Source: an uncultured Alphaproteobacteria bacterium
Lineage (GTDB): Bacteria > Pseudomonadota > Alphaproteobacteria > Methylaequorales > Methylaequoraceae
Direction: 5' to 3'
DNA length: 64,000 nucleotides
Assembly (NCBI GenBank): GCA_964484795.1
Contig: CAZAFN010000002.1
Coordinates: 8,352-72,351 of the forward strand
Part shown: in pieces, positions 57,128 through 64,000 of the stretch
How positions within the stretch are numbered: the first letter of the stretch is position 1
Layout: each line of letters begins with the position of its first letter
Translations under genes and position numbers: made by a program
Notes under the pieces: generated by a model
What the model was told of the DNA's origin: nothing
Databases searched by the model: none
The model's input: the letters and a program-made list of their open reading frames with translations, nothing else

Positions 57128-57439
57128 ATGAAAAACAATTCAATTAGCAATATGAAAATGAATCTAGAAGATCATATTTCAACCATCAACACAAAAAAGA
57201 TTGGTCAAAAAAATTCGCTAGAAGAGGTCGCTCAAGAGTTTGAATCCTTATTTGTTTTTCAAATGCTTAAAAGCGCAAGAAAAGCAAAGCTAGCTGAAGG
57301 CATATTAACCAACGAAGCTTTTGATACTTATCAATCAATCCTAGATCAAGAATACGCCAAGACGATTGCAAAAAATCAAAGCTTTGGAATAGCAGAAGCA
57401 CTAATAAGACAGTTTGGCAAATATGAGGATGTTAAGTAG
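57128..57439 (+). CDS. flagellar rod-binding protein (FlgJ N-terminal-domain-like)
   Basis: Rod-binding domain pattern (AQEFESLFVFQMLKSARKA…); the stop overlaps the flgK GTG start (TAGTG). Confidence 0.6.
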   Translation: MKNNSISNMKMNLEDHISTINTKKIGQKNSLEEVAQEFESLFVFQMLKSARKAKLAEGILTNEAFDTYQSILDQEYAKTIAKNQSFGIAEALIRQFGKYEDVK

Positions 57440-60400
57440 TGCCAAGTTTATTTGACATAGGAAAAAGTGGTCTTCAATCTTACAGGCAATCTTTAGCTGT
57501 AACTGGTCAGAACATTGCAAACATAAATACTGATGGATACAAAAAAAGAGAAGCGGCTCTTGAAGAAGTATCTGGTGGTGGTGGTGGTGTAACGGAAATT
57601 TCTGATCAAACGGGGTTAGGAGTTAGAGTTGGTGAAATTAGACGTGCATTTGATCAATTCTTGGTTGATAAGGCTAGACAGACATCTTCCATATATAAAA
57701 AGGCCGACACATATCTTGATGAAGTTAAAGATTTAGAAAACCTTTTATTACCTAGTGACTCAAACTTAAGCACTTCAATCGGAGATTTTTTTAATTCATT
57801 ACAAGAAATTGCAGCTGCTCCAGATGATCAAGCTCCAAGAATAATCGCCGTTGAAAAAGGGAAGGATCTTGCTGGTCAATTCAATCTATATTCAGATAGA
57901 ATTGAAAGTTTGAAAAAAAAAATAGTTGATAAATCAAAAAACTCGGTAACCTCAATTAATCTTCTGTCAACACAAATTAACAGTATAAATGGAAAATTGT
58001 TGGCATCAAGTTCAGGTAGTGGTGCAAATGCGCTCCTTGATCAAAGGGACATTCTAATAGATCAACTTTCAGAAGTTTCTCAGATAACTGTTTCTTACGG
58101 AAGCAAAGGTGAAGCTGAGATTAGACTTGGTAACACAGGTTCAGGACCAATAATTGTTGAAGCAGATTCATCATCTTCAAAAGGAAACAATTCTACTACT
58201 AATGTTGATGTTATTATTCAAGGTTCAAGATTGCAAACTGTTGTGGGGATAACTAAAACTGCCACCAATCAAGTGCAAGCTGGAATTCTAGCTGGTTTAG
58301 TCGATTCATATGCTTTGGCAAATGACACAATGAATGAGGTTGACGCCCTGGCAGTGATGATCTCCAAAAAATTCAATGAAATCAATATGTCAGGAATTAA
58401 TCTAGATGGAAAAAATGGAAAACAAATGTTCTCTGTTTCAAGTCTTGAGGCCGTAGAAAACCCAACTAATAGATCAAGTGTAGGTGTGGCCCTTTTTGTA
58501 ACTGATCCAGAAAAAATCCAAGAAAGTGCGTATAACGTTATCTTTCATGAAAAAACCGGTGAATGGAATTTAACTTCAGAAAAAATCAAAACTGCAATAA
58601 CAGGAACTGAAACAATTGAAGCTCCAGGATTCAGAATTTCATTTTTTGGTCAACCACTCGATGGAGATGAATTTAACATCACTCCTACTAGTGCATCCAA
58701 AGGAATGAATTTTCTTCTAGAGAGACCTCAAGATTTTGCTGCCGCCTCTACTTCCATGATTAGCTCAAGTTCAACCAACTTAGGGTCAGCAAAACTAGAT
58801 GAAATTTCACCAATTAAAGAAAAAGATAAAACTACATTGTTGAATTTGAATTCTGTTTTTTCAAATGGTCTTAGTCCAGTCACAGCAGGAGAGTTTACGT
58901 CTGATGGAGGAGCAGCCATCATTCCAACAGGAACTTCATTTGTAAACTTAAGTTCATACAAATCTCAACCACAGATAAAATTTGGCTTATCAGCATCTGA
59001 CATCCCAAAACTTACAAGTTTTACGGTCACATTGTCTGATTCAAGTACTGTGACAGTAGATTTAACCGGAGTAACTTCAATCCAGGAAGCTGCAGATGTA
59101 CTTAACAGGAGTAGAGACGTTCAAGGAAATTCTCACAATTTTAGATCAAAAGGGCTTTTTGCTTCAGGAGGTGGATCAACTTTGACTGTAGCAAGCAATA
59201 ACCTTACTTTTTCTTCTGGATCTTTAACCGCTGGAACTGCTATTAATGGTGTTGCAAACAATCCATCAATAACAGCAGCAAGCCAAGTTCAAATTTTCAC
59301 TAGAGAAGGAAGACATTTAGCTGGCACGGTTCTTACAACATCTGAAATAGCAAAATATTTGTCAGAGGAAAATGGTTTCTCAAAACATGCTGAATATAGA
59401 GCTGACTATCTCAATGGAACCGGAAGCGAAAATTATAGAGACATTGACATCTCAAGATCAACAATATCCGGAAACCACACTATAAGTTACGGTGCCAATG
59501 GTACGGCAGCGAGTGCACAAAGAGCCGCATCAACCGTTCCTTCAAGCCATGTTTCTTCAGCTTTTACATTGACCTTAAATTCAACAACCACGGGAAAGTC
59601 TGAAAACATTAGCGTCCCTGTAGAATCTTCATCTGGTTATGTTGCAGGATTGATAAATGCCAATACAAAAAGTCTAGGTTTAGAAGCATCAGCAAACACA
59701 AGAGTTAAAATCCCTGCACCAGCTTTTGATGGAACAATATCTTTTACACTTAAAAGCAAACAAGGGGTTGATAATAGTGCAGCAATTAGTGCTTCGATAT
59801 TAACGAATGATTTGACAAACCTTGCGACTACAATAAATAACTATTCCGGAAGAACAGGTGTTATTTCTCACTTGTCCAGTGACAAAAAACATATAATTCT
59901 TGAAAATAGTAATGGAGACGACATTCAAATAAGTTCTTTCTCAAGTTCCAACACGGCAAACAATCTAACAATCAACACTACAAGTTTGGGTTCCAGTGCC
60001 TCAGCAACCATATCAAAAAATGGACATGGACTTGAAACTGGTGACAAGGTTATTTACACCGCTGGTGGAACTCAATTAGGCAACCTTACAAATGGTGGAA
60101 CATATTATGTAATAAAGGTAAATGACAACAGTTTCAAGGTTGCGTCATCAAGCAGCAATGCTTATGGAGGGACGGCAATTACCGTTGGTGGTAGTGGTGG
60201 AAACGCAAATGACAAATTTACAATACCAATGAGTCTGGAAATTCTTAAGAATGACTTCAATGGGTTTTCCAGTGCTCAATCAATTGATTTAGATGGCAAC
60301 AGCTATAAAGCTGGAAGATTTAGTGGAGAACTGCATATTGAATCATCTTCAGCATTTACTACATCTAATGATGGTGGATCCACAACAGTCTCAAGTTCAC

Positions 60401-62847
60401 AAAATTCTCTAAAAGATGGATTTATGAGTGTAACCTCATCTTCTACGGGAGAAACAAAAACAGTTAGTCCACTTGTTTTGGATGCTGACTTCTCATCTGG
60501 ACATCCAGACGGAGTTAATTCTGCAAGTTCCGTATTAAGTTATGGGCTAACATTAGCTGCAAGCGGAACGGGAAGTGCTTTTACTACAACCGTAGATGTT
60601 TCAAAAAACGATAAATTAAGTACGGCAGAGGTATCCAAGAAAATTGCCGAAGGATTGAGAGCTAATAGCCCTTCAACTGAAATGACAGGCACTTCGGTTG
60701 CATCAATTCCTGCAGATGGTTCAAGTTTTAAAGTAGATCATGATGGCTTAACCTACACCTTAACAATGGAAAATGGTGAAGTAATTGTTTCAGGTGGAGA
60801 AAAGGATCTTTTAACGGCTTATTTTGATGACCCAGACGCAATCACAGTTAACACCACATCACTCAATGGAGCCACAACGATAACTTCTAATGAACACGAT
60901 CTCGAAACTGGAGATGCCATTGTTTACAATGCTGCCGAAAAAGTTAATGTTGATACCACTAATTTTACTTCAGTAACCACCATAACTGCAAAAAACCATG
61001 GTTTTGCTACTCAGGACCCCATAATTTATAAAGCTGGGGGATCTATGCCAATTTCAGGTTTAACGGATGGAACCACTTATTACGCAATTAGAGTTAATGA
61101 TGATAGTTTTAAATTAGCAACCTCTTCAGTAAACGCTGGTTCTGGTACGGCTATAACAATAGCAGGAGGAATAGGTGGGAGTGTTTCTGACAAATTTTCC
61201 AGTCCACGAGCAGGCTTGTTAGACGGAGAAACTTATTATGTCGTAAAAACTGATGATCACAATTTTAGGTTGGCTCAAACATATACTCTTGCAACAAATG
61301 CTAGTCCTTCCGTAATTACAATTGGAACTGGAAACGTTGGTGGTAACAGTGCAGACACATTTGACCCTGGAAAAAGATTATACATTTCCGCTGGAAAAAC
61401 CATATCTGGATCTCAGTTTTCATTTCCAACGGACAGCTCAAACGACACCAATTCATTAGACTTTGGAATGGATAAAACCAACGTAGAAACATCTATCACA
61501 GGTAGTGAAATCACTACTCCAACATATACAAAAGGCGGCTCTCCAACGGTCACACAGACTCATTTTCACTTTACATTTGGGCGCGAACAGCCATATTGTG
61601 TAGCTTATACGGACAATACAAAAACTGTAAACACAACGTCAGCAGTTTCTTCAAGTGAAATAACCTCTAGTTCTCACGGTTTCAAAACGGGAGACAAGAT
61701 TGAATATAATAAGGCAGGAACCGTATTGAATGGTCTTACAGATAACACCTCATATTTTGCCGTTGTCACTGGTCCAAACACCTTCAAACTTGCAAGCACT
61801 TGGGCAAATGCAACAGCAGAAACTCCGACCACAATGTCAATTGGAGGAAGTGGTGGAAATGCAGGTGATACATTTACAAGCATAGTTGCAGGCATTTATA
61901 ATGATGATTTTCCAGGTGGAACGGCATTAACAAATCTTGGAATTTCTATGGAGTTGACTCAATCAAGTGACACTAAAGCACAATTATCATTTGTTAAGGA
62001 AGCCGACAAAAATCAGATTGTCATAAGCAATGCTAAATATGATTATTTGGCTACAACTAGTGATAGAGAAGCTGAAAATTTTGGCTTTAAAACAAATCAA
62101 ATGAACGTAAATGTAATAAATGATGATATAAAAATTCAGTCATTTACGTCAGATTCTCGAGGGGCAAAGGCAGTTGATCTAGAAATTCCTTCTAATAGTA
62201 TTAAATCTTTAGTTGGAAACAATTTGTCAATCAAAAATTTACCCCCTGAGGACTTGATAATGATCATGACCGGCAACGGAACAAGAAAAATTGGTTCAAG
62301 TTATGGGGAAGTTCTTCCACCCCCTCCTCCATCTGAATATAAGGTAGTAGTTGACTCAACTAACAACAAAAAAATTGAGATTTTTGATGCATCAACCAAT
62401 CATTCAATTGCGTCAAGATTGATTCCTGACAATGGAATAATCTCTGCAGTGGACAAATCTCTAAGATTTACTGGAGAAACATCCACAAAAGACATTTTCA
62501 ACATTACAAATAATACTGAGGGAATTGGAGACAACAGAAACATTTTAAAAATGATTGACTTGCAAGAGTCAGATGTGAATGGTTTAAATTCTGGAAGTTT
62601 CCAGGATATTTTTAATCAAACTGTTGCAGAAATTGGTTCGACGGTGAGAAGTGGGCAATTAACCCTTCAAGATGCCGAATCAACAAAAAATGAAGCAAAG
62701 GCAGCTGAAGATGAAATGGCTGGTGTATCATTAGATGAAGAAGCATCGTCTCTAATTCAATTTCAACAAGCTTTCTCAGCAAATGCTAGAATCATTCAAA
62801 CTGCTCGAGAGCTATTCCAGTCATTGATGATGGTTGTTTCCAAATAG
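57439..62847 (+). CDS. flgK: giant flagellar hook-associated protein 1 (FlgK), 1802 aa
   Basis: FlgK N-terminal domain (LFDIGKSGLQSYRQSLAVTGQNIANINTDGYKKREA) and C-terminal helices (VSLDEEASSLIQFQQAFSANARIIQTARELFQSL). They flank a central insert of about 1400 aa that is Ser/Thr/Gly/Asn-rich and contains internal repeats. Confidence 0.8.
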   Translation: MPSLFDIGKSGLQSYRQSLAVTGQNIANINTDGYKKREAALEEVSGGGGGVTEISDQTGLGVRVGEIRRAFDQFLVDKARQTSSIYKKADTYLDEVKDLENLLLPSDSNLSTSIGDFFNSLQEIAAAPDDQAPRIIAVEKGKDLAGQFNLYSDRIESLKKKIVDKSKNSVTSINLLSTQINSINGKLLASSSGSGANALLDQRDILIDQLSEVSQITVSYGSKGEAEIRLGNTGSGPIIVEADSSSSKGNNSTTNVDVIIQGSRLQTVVGITKTATNQVQAGILAGLVDSYALANDTMNEVDALAVMISKKFNEINMSGINLDGKNGKQMFSVSSLEAVENPTNRSSVGVALFVTDPEKIQESAYNVIFHEKTGEWNLTSEKIKTAITGTETIEAPGFRISFFGQPLDGDEFNITPTSASKGMNFLLERPQDFAAASTSMISSSSTNLGSAKLDEISPIKEKDKTTLLNLNSVFSNGLSPVTAGEFTSDGGAAIIPTGTSFVNLSSYKSQPQIKFGLSASDIPKLTSFTVTLSDSSTVTVDLTGVTSIQEAADVLNRSRDVQGNSHNFRSKGLFASGGGSTLTVASNNLTFSSGSLTAGTAINGVANNPSITAASQVQIFTREGRHLAGTVLTTSEIAKYLSEENGFSKHAEYRADYLNGTGSENYRDIDISRSTISGNHTISYGANGTAASAQRAASTVPSSHVSSAFTLTLNSTTTGKSENISVPVESSSGYVAGLINANTKSLGLEASANTRVKIPAPAFDGTISFTLKSKQGVDNSAAISASILTNDLTNLATTINNYSGRTGVISHLSSDKKHIILENSNGDDIQISSFSSSNTANNLTINTTSLGSSASATISKNGHGLETGDKVIYTAGGTQLGNLTNGGTYYVIKVNDNSFKVASSSSNAYGGTAITVGGSGGNANDKFTIPMSLEILKNDFNGFSSAQSIDLDGNSYKAGRFSGELHIESSSAFTTSNDGGSTTVSSSQNSLKDGFMSVTSSSTGETKTVSPLVLDADFSSGHPDGVNSASSVLSYGLTLAASGTGSAFTTTVDVSKNDKLSTAEVSKKIAEGLRANSPSTEMTGTSVASIPADGSSFKVDHDGLTYTLTMENGEVIVSGGEKDLLTAYFDDPDAITVNTTSLNGATTITSNEHDLETGDAIVYNAAEKVNVDTTNFTSVTTITAKNHGFATQDPIIYKAGGSMPISGLTDGTTYYAIRVNDDSFKLATSSVNAGSGTAITIAGGIGGSVSDKFSSPRAGLLDGETYYVVKTDDHNFRLAQTYTLATNASPSVITIGTGNVGGNSADTFDPGKRLYISAGKTISGSQFSFPTDSSNDTNSLDFGMDKTNVETSITGSEITTPTYTKGGSPTVTQTHFHFTFGREQPYCVAYTDNTKTVNTTSAVSSSEITSSSHGFKTGDKIEYNKAGTVLNGLTDNTSYFAVVTGPNTFKLASTWANATAETPTTMSIGGSGGNAGDTFTSIVAGIYNDDFPGGTALTNLGISMELTQSSDTKAQLSFVKEADKNQIVISNAKYDYLATTSDREAENFGFKTNQMNVNVINDDIKIQSFTSDSRGAKAVDLEIPSNSIKSLVGNNLSIKNLPPEDLIMIMTGNGTRKIGSSYGEVLPPPPPSEYKVVVDSTNNKKIEIFDASTNHSIASRLIPDNGIISAVDKSLRFTGETSTKDIFNITNNTEGIGDNRNILKMIDLQESDVNGLNSGSFQDIFNQTVAEIGSTVRSGQLTLQDAESTKNEAKAAEDEMAGVSLDEEASSLIQFQQAFSANARIIQTARELFQSLMMVVSK
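60022..61880 (+). repeat. Degenerate ~65-aa intragenic protein repeats in the FlgK central insert (at least 3.5 copies)
   Basis: Copies at nt 60022-60228, 60995-61206, 61214-61367 (partial), 61672-61880, plus a partial copy at about 60892. They share [GS]HG[LF]xTGDxIxY…GLTDGTTYY.I.V.D.SFKLA.S…GTAIT..GG.GGN..D.F. Identity is at the amino-acid level only (about 40%). Confidence 0.5.
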
Positions 62848-62855
62848 GAGAATGC

Positions 62856-63785
62856 ATGAAAAAAACATTTAATCAGGAAATTAATTTAAAAATAACTTCT
62901 AAAAATCCTAACAAGAACGTTCTCTTCAATAAATCAGATGAATTCATCAATGAAATTATAAATGCTATAAACAAAAAACATCCAGATAGTTTTGAATTTG
63001 AAACCACCCAAAAGGTTGGGATAGATTTCTTCACCAAAAAGATGGAAAAGAATGAAAACTTTTCCTTTGTAAAATATGGTGATGGAGAATTACTTTGTAT
63101 GATCGGTCGTAAAGGAAAAAATAGTATAGATGACCACCCATATTCAGAAAAATTAGGAAAACTTCTTGAAGAATCATTTGTTAATTTATTCAGATTTCAC
63201 GATGATGTTTACTTAGCGGATTGGACTGACAATTTAACAAATACCAGAGATAGTTATATTTCCATCAATGGCTTAAACCCAAAATTTGCCGAATACGAAT
63301 GTTTTTTGACTCTCGAAGAAAACATAAAAAACAATAAACTGCTAAATTTTTATAAACTTCTTAAAAGGTCCAAAAGAAAAAAAATTTTTATTGGCCCAAA
63401 AAAACTTGCAAAAGTTCAAGAAATGCTAAATGTTGACAAATTCATAGACGTACCGATTGTTGATGCTTTCTCGGAATACGATAGAATCAAATCTCAACTA
63501 TTTGACTATGGAATAAATGACGATAACGTTTACATTTTATGTTGTTCCATGATGTCTTGCGTGATTTGCAGTGATTTAAAAGAAATGAATTCAAAAATCA
63601 CTTTACTTGATGTTGGGAGTGGTTTTGATCCTATATTTAGTCAAAAAACAAGACCAAAACAACCCACCAGCGCAAATTGTTTTAACTATTTCAGAGAAGT
63701 ACTCCCTGATGGATACGTCTTCAGTAAAACTAGCGATGCAGTGAACAGTATAAACAATAGGAAAATGCATGAAAAAAACATTTAA
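62856..63785 (+). CDS. GT-D (DUF1792)-like putative glycosyltransferase, copy 1; 3' end reads into the duplicated segment
   Basis: …FVKYGDGELLCMIG… resembles the N-terminal [RK]xGDGE motif of GT-D-fold glycosyltransferases. Begins 8 nt after the flgK stop. The last ~10 codons (…NNRKMHEKNI) are encoded by the repeated upstream/start region of copy 2. Confidence 0.35.
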   Translation: MKKTFNQEINLKITSKNPNKNVLFNKSDEFINEIINAINKKHPDSFEFETTQKVGIDFFTKKMEKNENFSFVKYGDGELLCMIGRKGKNSIDDHPYSEKLGKLLEESFVNLFRFHDDVYLADWTDNLTNTRDSYISINGLNPKFAEYECFLTLEENIKNNKLLNFYKLLKRSKRKKIFIGPKKLAKVQEMLNVDKFIDVPIVDAFSEYDRIKSQLFDYGINDDNVYILCCSMMSCVICSDLKEMNSKITLLDVGSGFDPIFSQKTRPKQPTSANCFNYFREVLPDGYVFSKTSDAVNSINNRKMHEKNI

Positions 63786-64000
63786 TCACGAAATTAATTT
63801 AAAAATAACTTCTAAAAATCCTAACAAGAACGTTCTCTTCAATAAATCAGATGAATTCATCAATGAAATTATAAATGCTATAAACAAAAAACATCCAGAT
63901 AGTTTTGAATTTGAAACCACCCAAAAGGTTGGGATAGATTTCTTCACCAAAAAGATGGAAAAGAATGAAAACTTTTCCTTTGTAAAATATGGTGATGGAG
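63769..64000 (+). CDS. GT-D (DUF1792)-like putative glycosyltransferase, copy 2 (3' end outside the window)
   Basis: All 232 nt visible are identical to 62856-63087 apart from one substitution (Q7H). Confidence 0.35.
   Translation, partial: MKKTFNHEINLKITSKNPNKNVLFNKSDEFINEIINAINKKHPDSFEFETTQKVGIDFFTKKMEKNENFSFVKYGDG

Follow-up and report, generated by a model that had tools for sequence, protein, structure and literature searches.

The flagellar operon of an uncultured, low-GC marine alphaproteobacterium very probably carries a real, inherited tandem duplication of a single gene, ancestral to the species-level population. The duplication was analysed in a 64,000-nt stretch of DNA (GenBank assembly GCA_964484795.1, contig CAZAFN010000002.1, positions 8,352 to 72,351 of the forward strand), which is referred to at its whole length as the window. 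The duplicated gene lies between flgK and flgL, and its product resembles glycosyltransferases of the GT-D type.

A direct-repeat search returned one family of 245 nt, in which 62843-63087 recurs at 63756-64000 with a spacing of 913. A preliminary description of this DNA had reported two mismatches in 245 nt, and base-by-base comparison gives exactly these two (62850 G / 63763 A and 62876 G / 63789 C). The 80 nt 5′ of each repeat copy show no similarity, which leaves a sharp left edge, and a match of this length and quality cannot be due to chance. The repeat takes in the Shine-Dalgarno region, the ATG and the first 77 codons of the open reading frame (ORF) after flgK, in agreement with the earlier reading of a repeated ribosome-binding site and 5′ end of a GT-D-type gene. 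Tandem Repeats Finder returned no match; the longest period that it covers is 500, below the 913-bp unit.

The second copy leaves the window at its right end and was followed on the parent contig, ENA SUTE22-1_SAMN10231916_METAG-scaffold_198 (92.7 kb; locus L001, in which a coordinate equals the window coordinate minus 52855). The two sequences are identical over the 11,145 nt that they share. On this contig unit 2 is full length at 63756-64668 (L001 10901-11813), with no divergence after 64000 (which the preliminary description had named as a refuting result), and differs from unit 1 at 3 of 913 positions, the third mismatch (63724 G / 64637 A) changing Ser to Asn. Unique sequence and then flgL follow. 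The contig carries exactly two units, which are adjacent direct copies of the whole segment with unique sequence on both sides; the tandem arrangement and the 913-bp period described earlier are both borne out. The features of the locus are as follows, with a slash marking the junction.

57439..62847, + strand: flgK (hook-associated protein 1), 1802 aa; Pfam FlgK_D1 (1.1e-44), Flg_bbr_C (1.6e-10) and Flg_bb_rod (1.5e-5)
62843..63755, + strand: duplication unit 1, 913 bp, from 13 nt 5′ of the ATG to 21 nt before the native GT-D stop
62846..62850, + strand: Shine-Dalgarno sequence AGGAG of copy 1, read from the sequence, 5 nt before the ATG and overlapping the flgK stop
62856..63785, + strand: GT-D-like glycosyltransferase gene, copy 1, 309 aa; Gln7; DXE motif G75-D76-G77-E78; native last six residues replaced
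63754..63757, no strand: novel junction ...ATAAAC/AATAGGAAAATG..., with 2-nt AA microhomology, between the gene 3′ end and the flgK stop region
63756..63785, + strand: rewritten tail of copy 1, codons 301-309 (NRKMHEKNI) and stop, from the Shine-Dalgarno sequence, ATG and first codons of unit 2 in another frame
63756..64000, + strand: part of duplication unit 2 in the window, extending to 64668 on the parent contig
63759..63763, + strand: weakened Shine-Dalgarno sequence AGGAA of copy 2 (A at 63763 against G at 62850)
63769..64000, + strand: GT-D-like gene, copy 2, as far as it lies in the window (full gene 63769-64689, L001 10914-11834); 306 aa; His7; native C-terminus KMCSSF

The left breakpoint reads ...GTTTCC/AAATAGGAG, the right breakpoint ...ATAAAC/AAAATGTGC and the junction ...ATAAAC/AATAGGAAA; in the SAMN10231916 contig the junction sequence is ...ATAAACAATAGGAAAATGCATG.... 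At its left end the unit takes in the flgK stop codon (TAG, 62845-62847). The breakpoints share AA only, which points to an illegitimate, microhomology-level join and leaves the unit edges ambiguous by 2 nt. The arrangement would be explained by one duplication of the 913-bp segment, through illegitimate recombination at the AA microhomology, in an ancestor of the species-level population, which left two complete genes in the same orientation between flgK and flgL. In sister strains the unit is 910 bp long, as against 913 bp here.

The same junction in other assemblies

Clustered at 90% identity, the copy 1 protein (on record, identical, as P0103) falls into a group of 28 members with three forms: Gln7 with the tail NRKMHEKNI (copy 1), His7 with KMCSSF (copy 2), and Gln7 with KMCSSF, which is single-copy-like. 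The identical junction and copy-specific bases occur, besides the window contig, in the following loci.

L006, SAMN10231915 (132 kb): complete duplicated locus
L019, SAMN10231917: complete duplicated locus
L018, Tara SAMEA2622733: complete duplicated locus
L002, Tara SAMEA2622837: flgK through copy 1 and the junction, breaking 89-95 nt into copy 2
L003, ERZ27286493 (k119 naming): flgK through copy 1 and the junction, breaking 89-95 nt into copy 2
L004, JGI 3300020477: flgK through copy 1 and the junction, breaking 89-95 nt into copy 2
L020, SANC23-1: from the copy 1 3′ end through the junction and copy 2 into flgL

The junction is therefore present in at least eight assemblies (three SUTE22-1 samples, two from Tara, one MEGAHIT-style, one JGI and SANC23-1) and is reproducible in independent data. 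The A of the weakened AGGAA is specific to copy 2 in all five assemblies with a complete copy 2 and in three partial ones, and L002-L004 carry both this A and the C of His7. An exact search for the junction pattern in genome and metagenome contig collections gave 0 matches; the contigs listed above are not part of these collections, and the result is hence no evidence of absence.

These observations bear on an assembly artefact, which the preliminary description had entertained and in which a single-copy gene is expanded or two strain haplotypes are concatenated. An artefact would fit the origin of all the data from short-read metagenome assemblies, the single copy seen in three assemblies that have identical flanks, and copy interiors that do not differ within any one assembly. 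The junction, however, joins the gene 3′ end to the flgK stop and Shine-Dalgarno region, a sequence that is absent from a single-copy genome and that graph assemblers cannot create; nor can several assemblers independently invent the same one. It recurs in these assemblies under at least two naming styles, it is approached from either side (from flgK in L002-L004, into flgL in L020), and the copy-specific bases flanking it are consistent everywhere. We consider an artefact extremely improbable.

The flanks of the locus resolve into two haplotypes, group A (L001, L006, L019, L007 and L022) and group B (L018, L021 and L023, the last being an extra partial locus from a protein scan of metagenome contigs). 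Members of one group are identical over the 2987 nt on the upstream side and the 2000 nt on the downstream side, whereas the groups differ from each other at 21 and 11 positions, respectively (32 sites in ~5 kb; 0.6-0.7%). Duplicated forms are present in both groups, so the duplication is either older than the group split or has spread by recombination.

Divergence between the two copies

In every duplicated assembly the copies differ at unit offsets 8, 34 and 882, an offset being a position counted within the 913-bp unit. At offset 902 they differ in L006 and L018, where copy 1 has G (as it also does in L002-L004), while in L001 and L019 both copies have A; in L018 they differ also at offsets 815 and 859. 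All resolved differences belong to chains of single-nucleotide polymorphisms (SNPs) that start from a unit end with a spacing of <55 nt, and offset 815 could be resolved in L018 alone, in which offset 859 links it to 882. Within each of the four duplicated assemblies the copies do not differ anywhere between offsets 35 and 814; between assemblies this interior varies at up to 12 sites and by a 3-nt indel. Group A alone holds five interior mosaics on identical flanks, including all four combinations of a block at offsets 198-305 with site 502.

Given that differences occur only near the ends and that the interior varies between assemblies, the interior appears to have been homogenised by the assembler or by gene conversion. 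Repeat collapse with per-bubble consensus and gene conversion give the same pattern, and assemblies cannot separate them. The 3 differences in 913 (99.7% identity) are a lower bound on the divergence of the copies; short-read assembly has probably inflated the identity, unless gene conversion lies behind it, and the figure is no proof of recency. The earlier term ‘near-identical’ holds for the contig as assembled, but the resolved differences adjoin the unit ends and true similarity may be overstated.

The preliminary description had called the duplication very recent and had listed an ongoing amplification among its options. On this view the event would be private to the population of this sample, and the near-identity would reflect its age. 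Bacterial tandem duplications do often arise and collapse, and the units on the contig show only the 3 differences mentioned. Against this, the same junction and the same bases at offsets 8, 34 and 882 recur in at least eight assemblies from different projects and oceans, and the junction is carried by two flank haplotypes 0.6-0.7% apart. Where the copies can be phased (~130 nt), they show 4-6 differences, and the identity of the interiors is not independent evidence, as a collapsed repeat yields it. We thus find a recent origin very unlikely and do not retain the suggestion.

True concerted evolution would also account for the pattern. Here the duplication is old, RecA-dependent gene conversion keeps the interiors alike and the edges, which conversion tracts seldom reach, diverge, as is known for tufA/tufB and for Campylobacter flaA/flaB. 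Interiors that are identical within four duplicated assemblies and different between them, with differences at the edges, are the classical signature of conversion between tandem paralogues. In our data the copies do look more alike within an assembly than between assemblies, but this is confounded by short-read repeat collapse, which yields the same pattern. Moreover, the copies differ at site 815 in L018 alone, which has a k-mer bridge in SNP 859, as an assembler limit predicts, and five mosaics on identical flanks with all four gametes look more like per-bubble consensus choice. We regard concerted evolution as possible, though somewhat doubtful.

Single-copy contigs and copy number

Three contigs show one copy of the gene. 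L007 (JGI 3300009104, a 253-kb contig) and L022 (JGI 3300007514) have group-A flanks identical to those of the window, and L021 (ERZ27286492, k119) has group-B flanks identical to those of the duplicated L018 and is unbroken from flgK through the gene to flgL. All the single copies combine Gln7 with the native tail and have A at base 882, which is the form required of either an unduplicated allele or a segregant of unequal crossover. Long direct repeats of this kind should, through unequal homologous recombination, yield single-copy segregants (Gln7 with the native tail) and segregants of higher copy number, and this would explain single-copy contigs with identical flanks.

A polymorphism of one versus two copies, in line with the copy-number variation offered as an option in the preliminary description, is plausible but unproven, as the single-copy contigs could also result from short-read assemblers skipping the repeat loop. 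At a repeat with good coverage, a plain unitig assembler should interrupt the contig. From what is known of such assemblers, the unbroken k119 contig L021 is the best hint of real single-copy genomes.

Substitutions within the unit

The unit has 18 substituted sites (16 nonsynonymous, 2 synonymous) in addition to one in-frame indel; codon positions were assigned here and checked against the protein variants of the 28-member cluster. In neighbouring genes the change is mixed or largely synonymous, with synonymous/nonsynonymous counts of 9/12 for flgK, 4/2 for flgL and 4/2 for flagellin. The excess in the unit is not significantly above neutral (binomial p ~0.2, assuming 78% nonsynonymous sites), and the claim is consequently limited to no visible purifying selection. 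Selection after the duplication was, in our reading, relaxed or diversifying; positive selection is not claimed.

A 108-nt block at offsets 198-305 (63040-63147 in the window, and also present in unit 2) carries a 3-nt insertion and 7 substitutions, every one of them nonsynonymous. The block occurs in two types, W (that of the window) and P (that of sister assemblies with identical flanks). Type W turns a nearly invariant N-C-D-x-H-P-Y into N-S-I-D-D-H-P-Y (NC-DDHPY to NSIDDHPY) and so hits Cys90, 12 residues after the DXE motif. Each type has its own derived residues relative to the outgroup P0002. The changes K268E, N290S and N297D are specific to copy 1, adjoin its new tail and are derived relative to the outgroup contig L005.

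A second clustered variant, TDNLTNT to TYNLRNI (3 changes in 7 residues; L021 3001-3918, offsets 386-402; P0107, P0108, P0110, P0112 and P0113), associates freely with either type of block and either type of tail, and is a further sign of mosaicism.

It is conceivable that the copies differ inside, one with N-C-D-x-H-P-Y and the other with N-S-I-D-D-H-P-Y, that they are sub- or neofunctionalised instead of merely doubling the dosage, and that the assemblies are mosaics of the two. The contrast between 0 differences in ~5 kb of flanks and up to 10 substitutions plus a 3-nt indel in the unit is in keeping with such hidden divergence, as are the share of nonsynonymous sites, the one-sided count in the block that touches Cys90 and the derived residues proper to each block type. 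Block type, however, is not tied to copy, W and P each occurring with Gln7 and with His7; the apparent single-copy contigs carry only P-type blocks; and strain alleles under diversifying selection explain the same data. Hidden functional divergence is, on balance, rather unlikely. A combined account, in which the interiors are random consensus picks of two diverged paralogues and a polymorphism of one or two copies stands in the population, is likewise an unlikely one. The reading of a real, inherited duplication ancestral to the population is the one followed below.

Gene products and expression signals

The ORF of copy 1 (62856-63785) ends ...NSINNRKMHEKNI (...NNRKMHEKNI) inside the upstream and start region of unit 2, in agreement with the earlier proposal that its C-terminus is encoded by the ribosome-binding site and start of copy 2. 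Copy 2 ends ...NSINKMCSSF. Native tails of the family, taken from the close members of ~100 homologues (~20 of which define the native tail), read ...LNKMCSSF, LNKMCGSF, LNKSCSSY or LNKMLSTF. By this comparison copy 2 carries the native tail, and copy 1 has exchanged its last six residues for nine new ones. All gene copies are intact.

The stop of copy 1 lies 17 nt inside the copy 2 gene, a 17-nt overlap. With its ATG inside copy 1 and a weakened Shine-Dalgarno sequence, copy 2 would probably be translated in coupling with copy 1. The stronger AGGAG is also found in the single-copy outgroup L005. Consensus scans returned promoter-like sites (21 vs 16.9±4.4 expected) and terminator-like sites (4 vs 2.1±1.5 expected) at chance level, and none in the short plus-strand intergenic gaps from flgK through the copies to flgL; we accordingly take both genes to belong to the flgK-flgL transcription unit. 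Its effect could be a double dosage, two slightly different enzymes, or both, acting on a flagellar component.

Phase variation, raised in the preliminary description, has a single simple-repeat candidate, the A7 run after the ATG. This run is identical in all 16 full or partial unit copies, as matched by a fixed-sequence pattern, and phase variation by simple sequence repeats was rejected on this ground.

A GT-D-like glycosyltransferase

Of 23 aligned homologues, 17 match Pfam PF22882 (GT-D-like) and 10 match PF08759 (GT-D; best E 1.6e-10). A profile built from the alignment matches the DUF1792 GalT1 structures 4PFX/4PHR (E 1.1e-6), with the invariant vKYGDGE aligned to vRFGDGE of GalT1, the DXE metal site. 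Residues K73, G75, D76 and E78 are invariant in the 23 sequences.

An AlphaFold2 model of the protein reached a predicted local distance difference test (pLDDT) score of 89.8 and a predicted template-modelling (TM) score of 0.86. In a Foldseek search of the PDB, the only significant matches were 4PHR (E 1.2e-7, probability 1.0, TM 0.48/0.53) and 5V4A (7.1e-7), both DUF1792. The predicted fold is accordingly that of a GT-D enzyme, at a moderate TM score of ~0.5. A Pfam match to Bac_DnaA on the N-terminal helix (E 3e-4 to 6e-3) is under the cut-off and was set aside as spurious.

The tail replaced in copy 1 forms the end of a C-terminal helix that was modelled with low confidence (pLDDT 54-60), and the most distant family members (P0096-P0101) are without the whole C-terminal tail. 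In the light of both, the catalytic core of copy 1 would be intact according to the model. Both copies are probably active, since the DXE motif and catalytic core are untouched in each and distant members have no tail.

The characterised GT-D enzymes, S. parasanguinis dGT1/GalT1 (4PFX/4PHR/4PHS) and that of S. sanguinis (5V4A), resemble the window protein in profile match, aligned GDGE and fold. Identity to the DUF1792 structures is 16-18% at a TM score of ~0.5, and the window protein, unlike them, has an extra N-terminal helix region of ~55 residues and a C-terminal tail. Known DUF1792 enzymes extend O-glycans on serine-rich-repeat adhesins of Gram-positive cocci, whereas the family described here is found between flgK and flgL in marine alphaproteobacteria. 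The literature searched contained nothing that links DUF1792 or GT-D to flagellin or flagella, only reviews naming both in passing.

A distant homologue (L017 57-587; 38% identity over the C-terminal half) was observed in a metagenome-assembled genome (MAG) of Flavobacteriia, a group without flagella, so the wider family is not confined to flagellar loci.

The flagellar locus and its relatives

In the parent contig flgL starts at 64723, 34 nt after copy 2, and is followed by a 169-aa ORF on the opposite strand, three flagellin genes, fliD and fliS. On the 5′ side of the flagellar genes the window holds the housekeeping genes spoT, era, recO, lepB, pdxJ and dapA.

The order flgK, one GT-D gene, flgL is present in 9/9 species representatives (L008-L016) of uncultured marine Alphaproteobacteria, which comprise GORG single-cell genomes, MAGs labelled ‘Rickettsiales bacterium’ and LRMED-289. 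In the closest outgroup contig, L005 (84% nucleotide and 82% amino-acid identity), the order is the same and the gene again single, and together with the nine representatives this marks one copy as the ancestral state. A glycosyltransferase gene thus lies beside flagellar structural genes in ten related lineages in total. Across these the GT-D protein is the fastest-evolving of the trio, with 55-65% identity as against 80-86% for FlgL, as would fit a role in surface modification under diversifying pressure. From its conserved position only, the GT-D enzyme presumably glycosylates a flagellar component.

Relation to known systems

In bacterial tandem duplication-amplification, duplications form independently of RecA at microhomologies and are lost or expanded by RecA-dependent recombination; the innovation-amplification-divergence model belongs to the same literature (Roth, Andersson, Hughes). 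The locus resembles such cases in its head-to-tail units, its 2-nt microhomology junction and the chimeric 3′ end of its upstream copy, and also in single-copy forms that join a copy-1-type 5′ end to a copy-2-type 3′ end, as unequal crossover predicts. Laboratory duplications, by contrast, usually span tens of kb, are unstable and are lost without selection, whereas this one is a single-gene unit with fixed copy-specific substitutions. As these fixed bases are common to ocean samples and to two flank haplotypes, the duplication appears to be stably maintained.

Paralogue families are also known from flagellar glycosylation loci, an example being the Campylobacter maf genes with their phase-variable homopolymers. 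With such families the locus shares a duplicated modification-type gene in a flagellar setting and nonsynonymous diversity above that of neighbouring structural genes; it is unlike maf in that the GT-D protein is not Maf/MptE-like, no variable homopolymer is present and no sugar-biosynthesis genes are visible at the locus.

Some points weigh against our interpretation of the locus. The evidence consists of assembled contigs, from which the copy number (two, or perhaps more), the single-copy forms and the divergence of the interiors were all read. The identities of the assemblers (metaSPAdes-like ‘scaffold_’, MEGAHIT ‘k119_’) were taken from contig names alone. On the k119 contig L003, flgK, the complete unit and the junction follow one another without a break, which would not be expected under a strict unitig model with identical interiors; our reasoning from assembly graphs is therefore incomplete. 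As to function, the window protein itself scores 21.9 bits against PF22882, under the Pfam gathering threshold of 27, and neither sugar- or glycan-biosynthesis genes nor other glycosylation genes turned up in the examined flanks.

Single-gene tandem duplications are a familiar phenomenon and, taken alone, this one is routine. It nevertheless provides a clean natural case of a small duplication that persists alongside apparent single-copy segregants, and archived read data could measure its copy-number dynamics in a wild, streamlined bacterium. It also offers a caution for genome scans: the argument ‘99.7% identical, hence very recent’ fails here because short-read assemblers report a collapsed repeat twice, with only its edges phased. 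In addition, the locus brings to light an uncharacterised, fast-evolving GT-D-like enzyme between flgK and flgL across a marine alphaproteobacterial clade, which suggests a type of flagellar glycosylation enzyme new to the literature searched. Should the hidden divergence considered above prove true, the locus would show innovation-amplification-divergence as caught at one moment in nature, within an abundant ocean bacterium and acting on an enzyme whose GT-D fold belongs to a family not previously tied to flagella, with copy 1 also having gained a new tail.

Other features of the flagellar region

FlgK, at 1802 aa, is far above the usual length. It contains at least three internal modules of ~65 aa, near 60094, 61069 and 61225, with the pattern G-x-TYY...(N/D)D-x-F(K/R)LA...GG-x-GG-N-x-x-D-x-F, and these are mirrored by the DNA repeat families D3 and D4.

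The three flagellin paralogues after flgL encode 264, 264 and 514 aa (L001 13855-17136, window-equivalent 66710-69991). Compared with L006 and L007, the window contig shows 0 differences in the first 2 kb downstream (flgL and the 169-aa ORF) and six in the first 264-aa flagellin gene; the caveat about repeat collapse and mosaics may extend to the flagellin genes. Among the flagellin genes, fliD and fliS lie two ORFs without a Pfam family (169 and 249 aa) and a TPR-repeat protein (L001 13148-13657, 18854-19603 and 20019-20930, all on the minus strand), the last of which could be a flagellin-modification or chaperone factor.

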